A stretch of 13,322 nt of DNA. Source: a virus. The notes beneath the pieces are model-generated. The model was not told the DNA's origin, ran no database searches, and worked only from the letters and a program-made list of their open reading frames with translations. A program made the translations under genes and the position numbers. Of the stretch, positions 1 through 10,188 are shown piece after piece. The stretch's first letter is position 1; every line of letters begins with the position of its first letter. The stretch lies in the UHGV virus genome UHGV-1734956; one strand, given 5' to 3'.

Positions 1-38
1 ACCCTGTTTTCCTTGCCATAGACACCATCCCTGTCTTC

Positions 39-64
39 CCCCACATGATGTGGGGTTTTTTTTT
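39..64 (+). terminator. Rho-independent terminator-like hairpin (CCCCACA / TGTGGGG stem, 3-nt loop) followed by a T9 run
   Basis: Read directly: ccccacaTGAtgtgggg then ttttttttt on the + strand. May terminate a rightward-transcribed flanking gene or belong to the att core region. Confidence 0.55.
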
Positions 65-3420: not shown

Positions 3421-3695
3421 GTATTCGTATTGAAATTGGCGAACGTTATGTCGTTACCAGTGACAGCTTTCAGTTTATTCTCCACGAGAAAAAGAGAGCG
3501 GAAAGCGGTAAAAACGCCGGTCAGGAATGGCTGGCGGTGGTTGGTTATTACCCGAAATTAAGCCAGCTCGTTTCCGGCCTGATGCATCACGATATTCTGA
3601 CCGGAAGCGCAAAGTCTTTTGCTGATTTAAACGCGCAGGTTGAGCAAATTAGTCAGCAATGTCTGACTGCATTTAACCATAAGTTCAGCCAATAA
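3417..3695 (+). CDS. Hypothetical early protein (P2 orf83-like position)
   Basis: 92 aa, coupled to the upstream ORF, GGAG upstream. Confidence 0.55.
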   Translation: MSIRIEIGERYVVTSDSFQFILHEKKRAESGKNAGQEWLAVVGYYPKLSQLVSGLMHHDILTGSAKSFADLNAQVEQISQQCLTAFNHKFSQ

Positions 3696-3709
3696 GCAGG
3701 GGACAGGTC

Positions 3710-4528
3710 GTGAATAACGTTGTTCATTACCACGGAACTCCTGTGTGGGGTGATGCAGGAAATGTTCATCGTATTGCTGTGAGTGGTGCAGGGGCATTTG
3801 TTTCCTATGCCCGGCCTGACCAACTCGTTGCCTCATTTAAACATGCTAAGTCCGTGGCGATTGATAATGGGGCTTTTTCAGCATGGAAAAGTGGCCTTGT
3901 TATCGACTGGCAGAAGTTTTATCAGTGGATTGCCCCTCATTATTATCATCCCAAACTGGCTTTCTTTGTCATACCTGATGTGGTGGACGGGGATGAAGCG
4001 GACAACGATGCGCTGATTAAAGCGTTGCCTCGTTGTTTTAGAGAAAAAGCTACTCCAGTCTGGCATCTGCATGAATCCTTGCAACGCCTTGTCGAACTTT
4101 GCCGGGAATGGCCTCGTGTTTGTTTTGGTTCTTCTGGCGATTACGCCACTGTCAGAACTGCACTCTGGCATAGCCGGATGCAGGATGCATTTGAAACCAT
4201 TTATCTTAAATATGGTTTTAGTACCCGCATTCATGGTCTGCGCATGCTTGATGGGCGCATTCTCGGTAATTATCCGCTGCATACAGCAGACAGCACTAAC
4301 CTTGCCTGTAACGTACCAAAATATCTTATCAAATATCCCGAACTGACAAGGGCAATCAGTGAGGCAGACTATACACAAAAACTTTCTGAGAAGGAGTTGA
4401 AGGCGTTCATCCTTAAAGGACGGTGTGCAATTCTGAAAAATTCTGTGGAGTCGGTTTTTCCTCCATCGATTGCTGAATGGGCATCAAATAGCCTTGCTCC
4501 ATCACAAATGGAGTTAGCTTTCGCATGA
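3710..4528 (+). CDS. Hypothetical 272-aa protein inserted between the orf83-like gene and A; function unknown (weak, speculative TGT/DpdA-like motif resemblance)
   Basis: GTG start with a purine-rich SD; stop overlaps the A start (ATGA). No equivalent gene at this position in canonical P2 as I recall it. Motifs HGTPVWGD and AIDNGAFSAWKSG loosely resemble the TGT-family TPxFMPVGT and DSGGFQ motifs. Confidence 0.6.
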   Translation: MNNVVHYHGTPVWGDAGNVHRIAVSGAGAFVSYARPDQLVASFKHAKSVAIDNGAFSAWKSGLVIDWQKFYQWIAPHYYHPKLAFFVIPDVVDGDEADNDALIKALPRCFREKATPVWHLHESLQRLVELCREWPRVCFGSSGDYATVRTALWHSRMQDAFETIYLKYGFSTRIHGLRMLDGRILGNYPLHTADSTNLACNVPKYLIKYPELTRAISEADYTQKLSEKELKAFILKGRCAILKNSVESVFPPSIAEWASNSLAPSQMELAFA

Positions 4529-6738
4529 CGATTTATGCTTACTCCTGGAACAAACCAAATGAAGCAATAGGACGCGAAAGATCTCTTACACGTGACGAGA
4601 TGCGTCAGGTGCAAGGTGTTTTATCCACGATTAACCGCCTGCCTTACTTTTTGCGTTCGCTGTTTACTTCACGCTATGACTACATCCGGCGCAATAAAAG
4701 CCCGGTGCACGGGTTTTATTTCCTCACATCCACTTTTCAGCGTCGTTTATGGCCGCGCATTGAGCGTGTGAATCAGCGCCATGAAATGAACACCGACGCG
4801 TCGTTGCTGTTTCTGGCAGAGCGTGACCACTATGCGCGCCTGCCTGGAATGAATGACAAGGAGCTGAAAAAGTTTGCCGCCCGTATCTCATCGCAGCTTT
4901 TCATGATGTATGAGGAACTCTGCGATGCATGGGTTGATGCGCATGGTGAAAAAGAATCGCTGTTTACGGATGAGGCGCAGGCTCACCTGTATGGTCATGT
5001 TGCTGGCGCTGCACGTGCTTTCAATATTTCCCCGCTCTACTGGAAAAAATACCGTAAAGGACAGATGACCACGAGGCAGGCATATTCTGCCATTGCCCGC
5101 CTGTTTAACGATGAGTGGTGGACTCATCAGCTTAAAGGCCAGCGTATGCGCTGGCATGAGGCGTTACTGATTGCTGTCGGGGAGGTCAATAAAGACCGTT
5201 CTCCTTATGCCAGTAAACATGCCATTCGTGATGTGCGTGCGCGCCGCCAGGCAAATCTGGAATTTCTTAAATCGTGTGACCTCGAAAACAGGGAAACCGG
5301 CGAACGCATCGACCTTATCAGTAAGGTGATGGGCAGTATTTCTAATCCTGAAATTCGCCGGATGGAGCTGATGAACACCATTGCCGGTATTGAGCGTTAC
5401 GCCGCCGCAGAGGGTGATGTGGGGATGTTTATCACGCTGACCGCGCCGTCAAAGTATCACCCGACACGTCAGGTCGGAAAAGGCGAAAGTAAAACCGTTC
5501 AGCTTAATCACGGCTGGAACGATGAGGCATTTAATCCAAAGGATGCGCAGCGTTATCTCTGCCGTATCTGGAGCCTGATGCGCACGGCATTCAAGGATAA
5601 TGATTTACAGGTCTACGGTTTGCGAGTCGTCGAGCCACACCACGACGGAACGCCGCACTGGCATATGATGCTTTTTTGTAATCCACGCCAGCGTAACCAG
5701 ATTATCGAAATCATGCGTCGCTATGCGCTCAAAGAGGATGGCGACGAAAGAGGAGCCGCGCGAAACCGTTTTCAGGCGAAACACCTTAACCGGGGCGGTG
5801 CTGCGGGGTATATCGCGAAATACATCTCAAAAAATATCGACGGCTATGCACTGGATGGTCAGCTCGATAATGATACCGGCAGACCGCTGAAAGACACTGC
5901 CGCGGCTGTTACCGCATGGGCGTCAACGTGGCGCATCCCGCAATTTAAAACGGTTGGTCTGCCGACAATGGGGGCTTACCGTGAACTACGCAAATTGCCT
6001 CGCGGCGTCAGCATTGCTGATGAGTTTGACGAGCGCGTCGAGGCTGCACGCGCCGCCGCAGACAGTGGTGATTTTGCGTTGTATATCAGCGCGCAGGGTG
6101 GGGCAAATGTCCCGCGCGATTGTCAGACTGTCAGGGTCGCCCGTAGCCCGTCGGATGACGTTAACGAGTACGAGGAAGAAGTCGAGAGAGTGGTCGGCAT
6201 TTACGCGCCGCATCTCGGCGCGCGTCATATTCATATCACCAGAACGACGGACTGGCGCATTGTGCCGAAAGTTCCGGTCGTTGAGTCTTTGACTTTAAAA
6301 AGCGGCATCGCCGCGCCTCGGAGTCCTGTCAATAACTGTGGAAAGCTCACCGGTGGTGATACTTCGTTACCGGCTCCCACACCTTCTGAGCACGCCGCAG
6401 CAGTGCTTAATCTGGTTGATGACGGTATTATCGAATGGAATGAGCCGGAGGTCGTGAAGGCGCTCAGGGGCGCATTAAAACACGGGCTGAGAACGCCAAA
6501 CCGTCAGCAAAGAAACGGAAGCACGTTAAAACCACATGAAATTGCACCATCGGCCAGACTGAGCCGGTCGGAACGATTGCAAATCACCCGTATCCGCGTT
6601 GACCTTGCTCAGAATGGAATCTTGCCCCAGCGATGGGAGCTTGAGGCGCTGGCGCGTGGGGCAACCGTAAATTATGACGGGAAACAATTCACGTATCTGG
6701 CTGCTGATGAGTGGCCGGGATTCTCAACAAACATATAA
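4525..6738 (+). CDS. A: Rolling-circle replication initiator (P2 gpA-like HUH endonuclease)
   Basis: 737 aa. HUH-type motif EPHHDGTPHWHMMLF (about 5630-5675) and paired-tyrosine motif AAGYIAKYISKN (about 5800-5835), as in phiX174 gpA / P2 gpA-type initiators. Last gene of the early operon. Confidence 0.9.
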   Translation: MTIYAYSWNKPNEAIGRERSLTRDEMRQVQGVLSTINRLPYFLRSLFTSRYDYIRRNKSPVHGFYFLTSTFQRRLWPRIERVNQRHEMNTDASLLFLAERDHYARLPGMNDKELKKFAARISSQLFMMYEELCDAWVDAHGEKESLFTDEAQAHLYGHVAGAARAFNISPLYWKKYRKGQMTTRQAYSAIARLFNDEWWTHQLKGQRMRWHEALLIAVGEVNKDRSPYASKHAIRDVRARRQANLEFLKSCDLENRETGERIDLISKVMGSISNPEIRRMELMNTIAGIERYAAAEGDVGMFITLTAPSKYHPTRQVGKGESKTVQLNHGWNDEAFNPKDAQRYLCRIWSLMRTAFKDNDLQVYGLRVVEPHHDGTPHWHMMLFCNPRQRNQIIEIMRRYALKEDGDERGAARNRFQAKHLNRGGAAGYIAKYISKNIDGYALDGQLDNDTGRPLKDTAAAVTAWASTWRIPQFKTVGLPTMGAYRELRKLPRGVSIADEFDERVEAARAAADSGDFALYISAQGGANVPRDCQTVRVARSPSDDVNEYEEEVERVVGIYAPHLGARHIHITRTTDWRIVPKVPVVESLTLKSGIAAPRSPVNNCGKLTGGDTSLPAPTPSEHAAAVLNLVDDGIIEWNEPEVVKALRGALKHGLRTPNRQQRNGSTLKPHEIAPSARLSRSERLQITRIRVDLAQNGILPQRWELEALARGATVNYDGKQFTYLAADEWPGFSTNI

Positions 6739-6799
6739 AAATGATTGAAATGGTTGATTTTGCTTCCACTTGATGGTTGGTATCAGCAACTGATGGATC

Positions 6800-7060
6800 A
6801 TGCGGAACTGCGTGGCAATCTTGCTTTGGAAGCATGTCATTATGACTAATGCATACATTACTAGCTATGCGTCCGGTTCCGCCATTGTACTCGTGCAAGA
6901 GTCTCCGGCTGATGGCTATTGTTTACAAATTATGGTCAAAGAGAATCTGACCCTCTACGAGTTGGTCGGAGGGACTGAGATCGTCAGTGATAACTGCAGC
7001 CGTATGGGAGAAATAAATAATCCCAACCGTCCATATTTCTACCTTCACGCGTGCCCATAA
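6800..7060 (+). CDS. Small hypothetical ORF in the variable hotspot (86 aa; alternative start at 6842 gives 72 aa)
   Basis: Open frame only; no recognisable motif and weak ribosome-binding context. Position corresponds to the variable region downstream of A. Confidence 0.3.
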   Translation: MRNCVAILLWKHVIMTNAYITSYASGSAIVLVQESPADGYCLQIMVKENLTLYELVGGTEIVSDNCSRMGEINNPNRPYFYLHACP

Positions 7061-7081
7061 TCTGTCACCACGTTGACCATA

Positions 7082-7124
7082 GAAAATCCCGCCGACGCTG
7101 AAACTCGCTTTCAGTGCTGGCGGG
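7082..7124 (-). terminator. Long GC-rich hairpin (about 16-bp imperfect stem, loop CTCGC) followed on the - strand by AUUUUCU; putative terminator for the RT gene, possibly bidirectional
   Basis: CCCGCC(7088-7093)/GGCGGG(7119-7124) outer stem with CTGAAA/TTTCAG inner stem. Lies between the convergent + small ORF / A operon and the - strand RT gene. Confidence 0.45.
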
Positions 7125-7187
7125 GTTGAACAACGAGCTTGCGAGGCGTTAGGGATGTCGAAATTTCATATGACTGTTCGCTTTAAT

Positions 7188-7231
7188 GCTTAACGAAGTC
7201 ATGTTGAGTTAATAACATTGTTTCGTTAAGC
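7188..7231. repeat. Perfect 10-bp inverted repeat GCTTAACGAA ... TTCGTTAAGC with a 24-nt loop that itself contains ATGTT...AACAT; overlaps the RT stop codon
   Basis: Read directly: arms at 7188-7197 and 7222-7231; the RT TAA (7226-7228, - strand) lies inside the right arm. Confidence 0.6.
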
Positions 7232-8770
7232 GCTGTGTTCCTTGTCGAATAAGTTCACTTCTTCTGGTGTAATATCAGTATCCATTTCTTCGAATGCATC
7301 TAAATCCACAATTTTTGTTTTTTTCAAAATTGATAGTATTTTCTGTTTGTTTTTATTTTTGGCTGAACCCGGAATCCACTCTACATCCCACAGGCCATCA
7401 ATGGTAAATGTTTTTTTTCCCTTGAGTTCATCATTTATGCGTTGACATAGGGCTGTTTTGTAATCGCCTTCCCATTGTGTGTGTATCTTCCCTTGAACTC
7501 GTTGAAACCAAATATCTAACATTTCAGTATTTGGTTGTTTACCTAGTTTACAATGAAGTTGTTGTAACTTGCCAAATTTGAGTTCATCGTCGTCATAAAG
7601 GAAGGTCAAGAGTTTTGCGAAAATAGCCATTCCCACTGGGTAGGTGGTTGGGTTTTTAGCCATGATGCTTGAAATAATTCCAAGCATTGCATCTAGTTGA
7701 TGCCCACTATTTGTGATCTTTTTCTTCCTAAATAATTTCCGCAAGAAATCATTTAAATATCTGACTGTAATTTTGGAGTTTTGATGTTTTAAAGAAAATA
7801 AATATATTGCATACAACATTTTCTGTAGGGAGTTGAACGACCCTTCTATAATATATTCTTTTTTTGCTGATTTAAGGGAGTGAAGAATGATGTCGTCATG
7901 TAGTTCTGTTTTTCTTGAGTTTAAATCAAGCCCAAACTCACCTAAGACCTCAACCAAACACTTTGAGATTTTGTCCAAATCATCTTTACTGCTTGAAAAT
8001 ATTCGATAATCATCTCTGTAGCGAACTACTTTGTAATCCGTTATTTTTTGCTCTTCGGTTTTTTTTCTTAGCTGTAAATCAATTTCGCCTAAAATTAATT
8101 CGGCAAATGTATCCATCAACGTACTACCCAATGGTATTCCGTTTGTCTGATTACTCATCATCATCTGGATATGAGTGTCAATCAATCGTCCTGGGTTATT
8201 GTTATTTTCTTTCTTTTTGGCCTCTTCTTTTGAGATGAATACCCATTCAAAGCTATGAGTGTAAATAGAAGGGTAGAAGTTTGAAATATCTGTGCTGAAC
8301 ATGAACTCATACTCAAGAGCCAATGAAAGACTTTTTTGTTCAAAATCTTCCCACCAGTTTAAAACAGATGCAGCTACGTTTGAGGTGTTCTTTTTGCTCA
8401 CTGGGATACTTGAGCATAAAAAAAGATCATTAGACTCAAACTCTCTAAATTTATTCCTTATAGCATTCCAGTTGGAAGAGGATGTAATAAGTTTACAAAA
8501 ATACACGTAGTACAGAGGATTAATTAGTGTTATTCGTCGCCAGCTATATAAGCCATCTTTGCTGACTAAAACCTCGTAATTTATATTCTTCCCCATCAAT
8601 GACTTGGAGTCAGGTTGGAAGTTGATTTTACCTTCATCTATCGCGGAGTTGATTTCTTCAAGCAAGGAAGAAAAATCGACATAACTGGGTAGCTCCAGAG
8701 TAGTGTATGAATCATGCTGCAGAAAATACTTAAGCGCTCTACCAGTAGTTAATTCATAAATCTTTTTCAT
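7226..8770 (-). CDS. Reverse transcriptase, defence-associated Abi-type (Abi-P2 / AbiK-like class), 514 aa
   Basis: RT motifs in the translation: FSTDISNFYPSIYTHS (motif A), NGIPLGSTLMDTFAELILGEID (motif B), VRYRDDYRIF (YxDD motif C), LDLNSRKTEL (motif D), then about 200 aa of C-terminal extension. ATG at 8770 (MKKIYEL...) chosen because the AT-rich body begins there; the track ORF extends to a TTG at 8896. Strongly AT-rich relative to flanks. Confidence 0.85.
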   Translation of the reverse strand: MKKIYELTTGRALKYFLQHDSYTTLELPSYVDFSSLLEEINSAIDEGKINFQPDSKSLMGKNINYEVLVSKDGLYSWRRITLINPLYYVYFCKLITSSSNWNAIRNKFREFESNDLFLCSSIPVSKKNTSNVAASVLNWWEDFEQKSLSLALEYEFMFSTDISNFYPSIYTHSFEWVFISKEEAKKKENNNNPGRLIDTHIQMMMSNQTNGIPLGSTLMDTFAELILGEIDLQLRKKTEEQKITDYKVVRYRDDYRIFSSSKDDLDKISKCLVEVLGEFGLDLNSRKTELHDDIILHSLKSAKKEYIIEGSFNSLQKMLYAIYLFSLKHQNSKITVRYLNDFLRKLFRKKKITNSGHQLDAMLGIISSIMAKNPTTYPVGMAIFAKLLTFLYDDDELKFGKLQQLHCKLGKQPNTEMLDIWFQRVQGKIHTQWEGDYKTALCQRINDELKGKKTFTIDGLWDVEWIPGSAKNKNKQKILSILKKTKIVDLDAFEEMDTDITPEEVNLFDKEHSA

Positions 8771-8976
8771 AATTAGTGATTTCTTCTTAAGTTGCGCACA
8801 AATAACTACCTGTTTTCTATCATGATAACGATGCGAATGCGAGCAATTCAGGAAGTGCATTACTCTGCATCGAAGCGCACGCAAGTCAGAGAACAATAAC
8901 TGCCTGGCGACATCAGGACTGGCGCGCTAGTTGAGTGGTCATGCAACTGCATTAAAACCGCCCCATGAAGCGGGCG

Positions 8977-8995
8977 GGCGAGGCGGGGAAAGCAC
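8977..8995. other. cos site core: GGCGAGGCGGGGAAAGCAC, the 19-nt P2/P4 cohesive-end sequence
   Basis: Exact 19-mer read at 8977-8995, about 170 bp beyond the portal stop and between the hotspot and Q, as in P2. The cos sequence is recalled from memory. Confidence 0.65.
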
Positions 8996-9137
8996 TGCGC
9001 GCTGGCGGTGGTGCTGATTTTATTTTTTCAGCGTCTGAGCGCGTCGTGAAGGCGCTTAGTCTGCCCGTTGAGGCGTTGGTGTGTCTGCGGGGTGTTTTGT
9101 GCGGTGGTGAGCGTGTGAGGGCGTGATGACGGGGTGT

Positions 9138-9159
9138 AAAAAAGCCGCCCGCAGGCGGC
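9138..9159 (-). terminator. Rho-independent terminator of the P-Q operon
   Basis: - strand reads GCCGCCTGCGGGCGGC (6-bp GC stem, 4-nt loop) followed by TTTTTT, starting 6 nt after the portal stop. Confidence 0.65.
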
Positions 9160-9164
9160 GATGT

Positions 9165-10188
9165 TCAGCCGTTGTCAGTGTCCAGTGAGTAGTTTTTAAA
9201 GCGGATGACCTCCTGACCGAGCCAGCCGTTTATCTCGCGGATCCTGTCCTGTAGCGGGATAAGCTCATTACGGACAAAGACCTTTGCCACTTTCTCAATA
9301 TCACCCAGCGACCCGACGTTCTCCGGCTTGCCGCCCATCAACTGAAAGGGGATGCGGTGCGCGTCCAGCAGGTCAGCGGCGCTGGCTTTTTTGATATTAA
9401 AAAAATCGTCCTTCGTTGCCACTTCACTGAGCGGGATAATTTTAATACCGTCGGCTTTTCCCTGTGGGGCGTAGAGAAACAGGTTTTTAAAGTTGTTGCG
9501 GCCTTTCGACTTCACCATGTTTTCGCGAAGCATTTCGATCCTGCACGGCATCAGTGACGTACATGATGTATCCGGCATGTGCGCCGTTTTCGTAATACTT
9601 GCGGCGGAACAGCGTGGCCGACTCATTCAGCCAGGCAGAGTTAAGGGCGCTGAGATATTCCGGCAGGCCGTACAGCTCCTGATTGATATCCGGCTCCAGC
9701 AGGTGAAACACGGAGCCGGGCGCGAAAGGTGTCGGCTCGTTGAAGGACGGCACCCACCAGTAAACATCCTCCTCCACGCCACGGCGGGTATATTTTGCCG
9801 GTGAGGTTTCCAGTCTGATGACCTTACCGGTGGTGCTGTAACGCTTTTCCAGAAACGCATTACCGAACACCAGAAAATCCAGCACAAAGCGGCTGAAATC
9901 CTGCTGGGAAAGCCACGGGTGCGGAATAAACGTTGAAGCCAGAATATTACGTTTGACGTAAATCGGTGAGCTGTGATGTACGGCAGCACGCAGGCTTTTT
10001 GCCAGACCGGTAAAGCTGATCGGTGGCTCATACCATCTGCCGTTACTGATGCACTCGACGTAATCCAGAATGTCACGGCGGTCGAGTACCGGCACCGGTT
10101 CACCAAAGGTGAATGCCTCCATTTTCGGGGCGCTGGCGGTCATTTTTTTTGCCGCAGGTTGCGGTGTTTTCCCTTTTTTCTTGCTCAT
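9165..10188 (-). pseudogene. Q: Portal protein (P2 gpQ-like) interrupted by a frameshift near 9535-9550
   Basis: Two overlapping - strand ORFs in different frames (9487..10188 and 9165..9626) together give about 340 aa, close to the 344 aa I recall for P2 gpQ. Start overlaps the terminase stop (TGATG). No single intact ORF exists in this sequence. Confidence 0.6.

Follow-up and report, generated by a model that had tools for sequence, protein, structure and literature searches.

A predicted EC58-type Abi-P2 reverse transcriptase gene in the A-cos hotspot of a P2-like prophage

Introduction

What is the AT-rich reverse transcriptase (RT) gene that lies between replication gene A and cos in the viral genome UHGV-1734956, and does it stand alone there? 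We addressed this on a single stretch of 13,322 nucleotides, referred to below as the window. The cos-proximal hotspot between gpA and gpQ is the site of old and tin in P2 itself (PMC9122126), and AbiP2 has been listed among its occupants both in the 2022 UG/Abi classification (PMC9226505) and in a 2026 survey of P2/P4 hotspots (PMC13586616). Abi-P2 was first described in 2006 (Odegrip, Nilsson & Haggard-Ljungquist) and crystallised in 2022 (Figiel et al.; PMC9508834); the latter paper, citing Odegrip et al. 2006, traces the definition of Abi-P2 to two prophages, P2-EC30 and P2-EC58. An earlier reading of the window, made from its letters and open reading frames (the sequence-only reading), had proposed an Abi-class RT as the sole cargo of the hotspot and had left undecided whether this RT is Abi-P2 or belongs to another RT clade.

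Results

The window spans the left part of a P2-like prophage together with its packaging end. In window order it holds an integrase, a C-type repressor, cox, B, several small early genes, A, the hotspot, cos, portal Q, terminase P and scaffold O. Its closest relative among complete E. coli genomes is strain PD4, which covers 93% of the window at 98.3% identity; in PD4 the prophage adjoins cpxP and the A, RT and Q genes have the same arrangement. The landmarks that define the hotspot are as follows:

184-1194, - strand: integrase, the first gene in window order
4525-6738, + strand: replication gene A, left border of the hotspot (phrog_91, "nicking at origin of replication", E 0)
6739-8940, right end approximate, no strand: variable (cargo) segment of the A-cos hotspot, from comparison of phage records
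8977-8995, + strand: P2-type cos cohesive-end sequence GGCGAGGCGGGGAAAGCAC, exact match
9165-10188, - strand: portal gene Q, right border, split into two ORFs (phrog_68 portal, covering profile positions 1-223 and 220-343)

The 19-mer GGCGAGGCGGGGAAAGCAC, which we take to be the P2 cos sequence, is also found in pro147, HKUOPY1 and PD4. In comparisons with other P2-like phages the match sets in only at about 8913-8942, the interior being covered by three phage records, and a backbone block at 8941-8957 beside cos is the only part shared with the upstream region of EC30-type loci. Since both kinds of match begin only there, we set the cargo segment at 6739 to about 8940. Gene A thus ends at 6738, cos lies at 8977-8995 and the RT gene sits between them, in the place of old and tin in P2, just where the sequence-only reading had put it. 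The Q side of cos (8996-9164) is empty in the window; HKUOPY1 has a 333-aa hypothetical protein on that side. Portal gene Q is split by a deletion of 11 bp, which shows as a gap near 9536 in the alignment with E. coli PD4. Because this gene is frameshifted, the prophage element may be decaying; abi-P2 itself is intact.

To characterize the RT gene we located its reading frame, its motifs and its domain boundaries. It runs on the - strand from an ATG at 8770 to a TAA at 7226-7228, giving 514 aa with no interruption:

7226-8770, - strand: abi-P2 coding sequence, EC58-type allele, 514 aa plus stop (ORF and translation, PADLOC AbiP2 profile, identity to EC58, PDB 7R08)
8681-8683, - strand: Tyr30 codon TAT, counterpart of the EC30 priming Tyr61 (alignment offset of 31 residues)
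8264-8290, - strand: RT motif DISNFYPSI at aa 161, holding the first catalytic Asp, D161 (exact match; invariant in window, EC58 and EC30)
8105-8134, - strand: RT motif PLGSTLMDTF at aa 213 (exact match; invariant in window, EC58 and EC30)
8009-8020, - strand: active-site motif YRDD at aa 251, with Y251, D253 and D254 (exact match; invariant against EC30 and EC58)
7907-7918, - strand: RT motif SRKT at aa 285 (exact match)
7229-7885, - strand: C-terminal domain, aa 296-514, homologous to the Abi-P2 alpha-helical solenoid (aligned to 7R08 through aa 508)

All four motifs quoted in the sequence-only reading were found exactly. Pfam RVT_1 matches aa 144-291 with 40.8 bits (gathering cut-off 29.6), which leaves 223 aa C-terminal to the match, in agreement with the extension of "roughly 200 aa" described there. 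The claim that the gene is AT-rich also held: the gene has a GC content of 0.351, lower than the 53-56% of the phage genes on either side (gene A, 0.528; Q-P region, 0.555) and than the 0.488 of the window overall. A low GC content has been reported for Abi-P2 (PMC8632793).

Two longer versions of the frame can be drawn. The longest mechanical ORF starts at a TTG at 8896 (556 aa), and the GenBank record of P2-EC58 gives a product of 544 aa with a start 30 codons further upstream than ours. In the alignment of the window, EC58 and EC30 proteins, the residues that precede MKK are unrelated between EC58 and EC30, and conservation is high from MKK on; furthermore, the crystal structure of EC30 Abi-P2 does not show residues 1-31 (PMC9508834). 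For these two reasons we consider the 514-aa start the best call, and the start given in the EC58 record does not look genuine.

The protein was then compared with the known members of the family. A tblastn search of phage records gave 98.8% aa identity to P2-EC58 ORF544 ("putative reverse transcriptase") over 100% of its length, 98.6% to gp33 of phage pro147 and 74.7% to the P2-EC30 reverse transcriptase ORF570, the last two likewise at full length. At the DNA level, the cassette 6703-9003 is 99.1% identical to those of pro147 and P2-EC58. The PADLOC profile AbiP2 (PDLC03744) matches with E 6e-160 and 531 bits, aligning aa 1-512 with positions 4-487 of its 489, and the crystal structure of EC30 Abi-P2 (PDB 7R08) is matched over aa 1-508 with a single one-residue gap (E 3.6e-256). 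Identity to EC30 is 78.6% in the RT-like part (aa 1-295) and 69.4% in the C-terminal part. With an offset of 31 residues, EC30 Tyr61 corresponds to Tyr30 of the window protein, Tyr46 to Tyr15 and Tyr282 to Tyr251 of YRDD. The priming tyrosine lies in a similar context in both proteins, LELPSY(30)VDF in the window being aligned with LELPAY(61)INF in EC30, and D161, D253, D254 and Tyr30 are all conserved in the alignment with EC30 and EC58. Judged by its sequence, then, the window protein is Abi-P2 itself, in its EC58-type allele: the AbiP2 profile match and the close relationship to the founding EC58 and EC30 proteins settle the membership that had been left undecided, and the full-length profile match together with the position between gene A and cos bears out the proposal of an Abi-class RT in the P2 hotspot. 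By the same alignment, the C-terminal domain is predicted to form an alpha-helical solenoid in place of a thumb.

The RT gene is the cargo of the hotspot, as proposed, but not its sole occupant, because the variable segment also encodes a small protein on the opposite strand:

6800-7060, + strand: ORF86 (ORF85 of P2-EC58, gp34 of pro147; phrog_13272), convergent with abi-P2 and inside the variable segment

Does Abi-P2 need this protein, or is it regulated by it, as in a two-gene system with an antitoxin-like or sensor partner? ORF86 shares the variable segment with the RT, belongs to a PHROG family (phrog_13272, E 2.8e-54) and in the phage collection occurs only alongside an EC58-type RT, which it accompanies in every phage record that has it. 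EC30-type loci, however, have no room for it: in E. coli Combat13F7 only 103 bp lie between the stop codons of the RT and of gene A, and the P2-EC30 record has 180 bp. As these loci lack ORF86, it is not obligate, and we rejected it as an obligate partner of Abi-P2. Whether Abi-P2 defence requires other elements of the locus was called unclear in a 2021 review (PMC8632793); against such a need, EC30 Abi-P2 is active in vitro alone (PMC9508834) and is reported to exclude T5. A relative of ORF86 does recur beside another Abi-P2, since a 33-aa stretch is 54% identical to part of a 92-aa ORF in the hotspot of a P2-like prophage of Entomohabitans teleogrylli, which also has a 75%-identical Abi-P2. 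There, however, the RT has the ORF on its cos side, so that no fixed arrangement is kept. ORF86 also differs from the RT in GC content (0.46 and 0.35, respectively), which points to a separate origin; RefSeq leaves it unannotated in PD4 and HKUOPY1, and it has no PADLOC or Pfam match. Altogether we consider a two-gene system very unlikely, and ORF86 is probably a small independent hotspot gene.

We next weighed whether the protein might belong to another class 1 UG/Abi or DRT family. In the profile-HMM search across RT, Abi, UG and DRT families that the sequence-only reading had proposed for this purpose, RVT_1 lies above its cut-off and AbiP2 is best by far. Four other PADLOC profiles are also significant, namely Drt6 (158 bits, E 6.7e-47), UG14 (153 bits, E 2.8e-45), Drt4 (144 bits, E 1.8e-42) and AbiK (106 bits, E 7.8e-31), but none exceeds 158 bits against the 531 of AbiP2 and they mostly cover the RT part. 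The NCBIfam models for Drt4 (122 bits, cut-off 450), Drt3b (117 bits, cut-off 350), group II intron maturase, AbiA and retron St85 all score far under their curated cut-offs. Given in addition the near-identity to the founding Abi-P2 proteins, an assignment to Drt6, UG14, Drt4 or AbiK instead of Abi-P2 is highly improbable.

Since several RT classes act with an RNA encoded beside them, we looked for structured RNA on both sides of the gene. A scan of the whole window gave no Rfam family at E<=1 in the hotspot (6739-8976), and a repeat search around the RT turned up neither inverted repeats of the a1/a2 type nor direct repeats flanking the gene. Folding of the 206 nt that separate the abi-P2 start codon from cos gave no more structure than shuffled sequence has (z +0.35). 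The 165 nt downstream (7061-7225) gave z -1.72 and contain a terminator hairpin that appears in both the MFE and the centroid structure; this was the only structured RNA seen near the RT by Rfam, folding of both flanks and the repeat search.

7081-7124, - strand: intrinsic terminator of abi-P2, with AUUUUCU after a GC-rich hairpin of 37 nt (7088-7124)
8771-8940, - strand: upstream non-coding part of the cassette, presumed promoter region (from alignment; no excess RNA structure)

abi-P2 forms a transcription unit of its own, ends in its own terminator and, as far as Rfam, folding and the repeat search show, has no associated RNA, in line with the earlier remark that no msr/msd-like structure flanks it: no Rfam retron RNA and no suitable inverted repeats were found. 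That the gene encodes a retron RT or a group II intron RT whose RNA partner escaped recognition has a negligible probability. The RT-core matches that would speak for it are weak (group_II_RT_mat, TIGR04416, 42 bits; retron_St85_RT, 35 bits) and fall far short of the respective cut-offs (300 and 235 bits); neither a retron or intron RNA of Rfam (E<=1) nor an a1/a2-type or flanking repeat was found in the window; the upstream region folds like shuffled sequence; and the protein, which aligns with 7R08 throughout, has a 223-aa helical C-terminal domain where a maturase/X domain would stand. The sequence-only reading had turned down both classes as well. On the upstream side, a block at 8811-8825 (TCATGATAGAAAACA) differs by one base from the upstream region of EC30-type loci, and this near-identity hints at the location of the abi-P2 promoter. 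Upstream of the RT, a sigma-70 scan of the - strand detected no consensus site, and for this reason expression of abi-P2 from the prophage is only assumed.

Finally, we asked how widespread the gene is. A DNA search found abi-P2 in 75 of 5426 complete E. coli genomes (~1.4%). The matching E. coli records fall into two groups, 65 at >=99% identity (the window allele) and 11 at 60-80% (EC30-type); the gene occupies the same gene A-cos locus in 65 E. coli records, and three copies were on plasmid records. A scan of a genome collection, which detects close relatives only, gave three loci, in Entomohabitans and at two "Martelella alba" contig ends. When the window is aligned with PD4 there are 4 mismatches over 6500-9000, and in the phage genes on either side 2-4% of positions differ. 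Because the cassette is near-invariant while its flanks differ to this extent, the comparison is consistent with cassette exchange among P2-like backbones.

Discussion

Our preferred reading, to which we give a probability of roughly 93%, is that the gene is abi-P2 (the EC58 ORF544 allele), a moron of a P2-like prophage that would encode a self-primed, untemplated ssDNA polymerase excluding phage. On this reading it is carried in the gpA-cos variable region of a prophage integrated beside cpxP. By homology to EC30, the product is predicted to be an RT-like polymerase with palm and fingers, no thumb and a fused C-terminal alpha-helical solenoid, which would assemble into trimers and possibly a dimer of trimers. 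The first nucleotide would be attached to the protein's own Tyr30, a tyrosine of the fingers loop, and ssDNA would then be extended without template or nucleic-acid primer, with the solenoid sitting in the thumb's place and lining the channel of the nascent strand. A lysogen would, from the literature, block superinfecting phages via abortive infection, T5 being the target of the EC30 homologue.

The biochemistry behind this reading comes from EC30 Abi-P2, which is a trimer, makes template-free DNA products of ~40 nt and >100 nt in vitro, loses DNA synthesis with the Y61F substitution and has its alpha-solenoid in the thumb's place, where it lines the nascent-strand channel (PMC9508834). Its Tyr282 is the sole DNA-contacting residue shared with AbiK, and the purified protein is free of nucleic acid (PMC9508834). 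A stand-alone gene without an RNA fits such nucleic-acid-free, template-free synthesis. Resistance to T5 conferred by EC30 orf570 is stated in PMC9508834 and PMC8632793, both passing on Odegrip 2006. In the literature we found, T5 exclusion, polymerase activity and structure all concern the EC30 allele, and none the EC58-type allele.

It is conceivable, if unlikely, that the EC58-type cassette differs functionally from EC30 Abi-P2, with another phage specificity or a regulatory partner. We mention this because the helical domain is ~31% diverged and because an ORF86-family protein recurs, elsewhere placed, in another Abi-P2 hotspot. If it were true, the allele could reveal how Abi-P2 senses infection.

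On our preferred reading the finding is already known: the gene is a near-identical copy of a named family, with an experimental basis and a solved structure, in its canonical location. The window adds one further copy of the commoner E. coli allele (EC58-type, 65 records against 11), and Abi-P2 is already in the standard defence classifiers, with a PADLOC profile and reporting by DefenseFinder. For Abi RTs as a class, the question is how untemplated, protein-linked ssDNA stops phage and what triggers this (PMC12783706, PMC11077055); the window locus makes it no more testable than do existing clones. The residual novelty is modest and concerns what the EC58-type allele and ORF86 do.

Comparison with known systems

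The closest known system is the Abi-P2 of P2-EC58 (ORF544, CAJ43157), with which the window protein shares 98.8% of residues over 514 aa, the cassette including ORF85/ORF86 and the non-coding flanks, with 99.1% nucleotide identity over 6703-8962, and the A-cos position; the two differ by a handful of substitutions and by the annotated start, which lies 30 codons upstream in the EC58 record. Escherichia phage pro147 (NC_028896) is nearly as close, with its gp33 RT (98.6%), the ORF86 homologue gp34 and the cassette on the A side of cos. It differs in carrying retron Ec48 (RT plus membrane effector) between cos and Q, where the window is empty (8996-9164).

The Abi-P2 of P2-EC30 (ORF570, 7R08) has the same hotspot, RT motifs, YRDD and priming tyrosine, and aligns at 74.7% identity with a one-residue gap. 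It is nevertheless a diverged allele (78.6% in the RT-like part, 69.4% in the helical part), and EC30-type loci are without ORF86.

More distantly, AbiK of Lactococcus lactis, AbiA and DRT4 belong to the same class, with a thumbless RT-like palm and fingers followed by C-terminal helical repeats (PMC9508834, PMC11077055, PMC12783706). They share tyrosine-primed, untemplated ssDNA synthesis and the formation of oligomers (PMC9508834, PMC11077055, PMC12783706), properties that the window protein would have by homology. AbiK is nonetheless a distant relative, its PADLOC profile scoring 106 bits on the window protein against 531 for AbiP2. Its helical domain has no sequence homology to that of Abi-P2 and its priming tyrosine is located elsewhere (PMC9508834). 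Finally, AbiK is a hexamer encoded on a Gram-positive plasmid (PMC9508834), whereas the window protein would be the trimeric product of a P2-like prophage.

Possible exchange of the abi-P2 cassette within a divided hotspot

The cos site (window 8977-8995) divides the variable gpA-gpQ hotspot into two sub-sites. On the A side of cos lies abi-P2, which encodes the RT-like defence polymerase, while on the Q side we found retron Ec48 in phage pro147 (L002 8578-10472), a 333-aa hypothetical protein in HKUOPY1 (L004 11502-12503), and no cargo in the window (8996-9164). When the window was compared with E. coli PD4, the strain with the closest complete genome, the cargo cassette (window 6500-9000) showed only 4 differing positions in 2.5 kb, whereas the adjoining phage genes differed at ~2-4% of positions. 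This disparity between cassette and flanks suggests that the cassette was exchanged recently between diverged P2-like backbones.

Two further features were seen at the 3' end of abi-P2. The terminator region downstream of the gene (window 7066-7152) resembles other E. coli prophage loci that carry no RT (H38, H39), with 81-90% identity over short stretches; it may be a terminator module common to different hotspot cargos. Separately, the abi-P2 stop codon falls within an 18-nt inverted repeat (window 7188-7231), whose arms are 83% complementary and enclose an 8-nt loop.

Relatives of the cassette genes in other genome assemblies

The small ORF86 (window 6800-7060, + strand), which is convergent with abi-P2, belongs to the phrog_13272 family and matches phrog_11386 more weakly. 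A relative (54% identity over 33 aa) occurs at 3006-3284 of L006, a P2-like prophage locus of Entomohabitans teleogrylli, in a position different from that in the window. The same hotspot also has an Abi-P2, 75% identical to the window protein, together with two extra ORFs, neither of which is present in the window:

L006 3392-3928: 178-aa ORF, directly upstream of Abi-P2 and co-oriented with it
L006 5591-6073: 160-aa ORF, between Abi-P2 and gene A

Abi-P2 is also encoded jointly by two contig ends (L007 76-945 and L008 4001-4681) in an assembly of the alphaproteobacterium 'Martelella alba', with 73-80% identity to the E. coli protein of the window. This occurrence could reflect either assembly contamination or long-range transfer.

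State of the prophage

Portal gene Q (window 9165-10188, - strand) is interrupted and reads as two overlapping ORFs:

9487-10188, - strand: matches portal profile positions 1-223
9165-9626, - strand: matches portal profile positions 220-343

The frameshift results from a deletion of 11 bp at ~9536 relative to E. coli PD4. If the deletion is genuine rather than an artefact of assembly, the prophage is probably packaging-defective, with abi-P2 still intact.

At the left end of the window, just beyond the integrase gene, positions 1-63 (- strand) match the Rfam family Hrs1 (Hfq-regulated sRNA 1). The match, truncated where the window begins, scores 47.3 bits (E 1.1e-6) and does not reach the gathering score of 56.4. 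Its counterpart in E. coli PD4 lies 4 bases after the cpxP stop, and the segment probably belongs to the host DNA of the prophage attachment site.

A possible third variable locus upstream of gene A

A 922-bp segment (window 3648-4569) is missing from the closest relatives PD4, HKUOPY1 and pro147, which have ~142 bp there instead. It carries this ORF:

3710-4528, + strand: 272-aa ORF, its 3' end overlapping the start of gene A

The N-terminus of gene A differs as well (737 aa in the window, 758 aa in relatives without the segment). Searches of Pfam and PADLOC returned no match for the 272-aa product. It does match phrog_887, 'queuine tRNA-ribosyltransferase' (E 8.8e-87), and shares 78% identity with a gene of Salmonella phage SEN1. 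A third variable locus may be present here, with a gene for DpdA-like DNA modification or for anti-restriction as its cargo.
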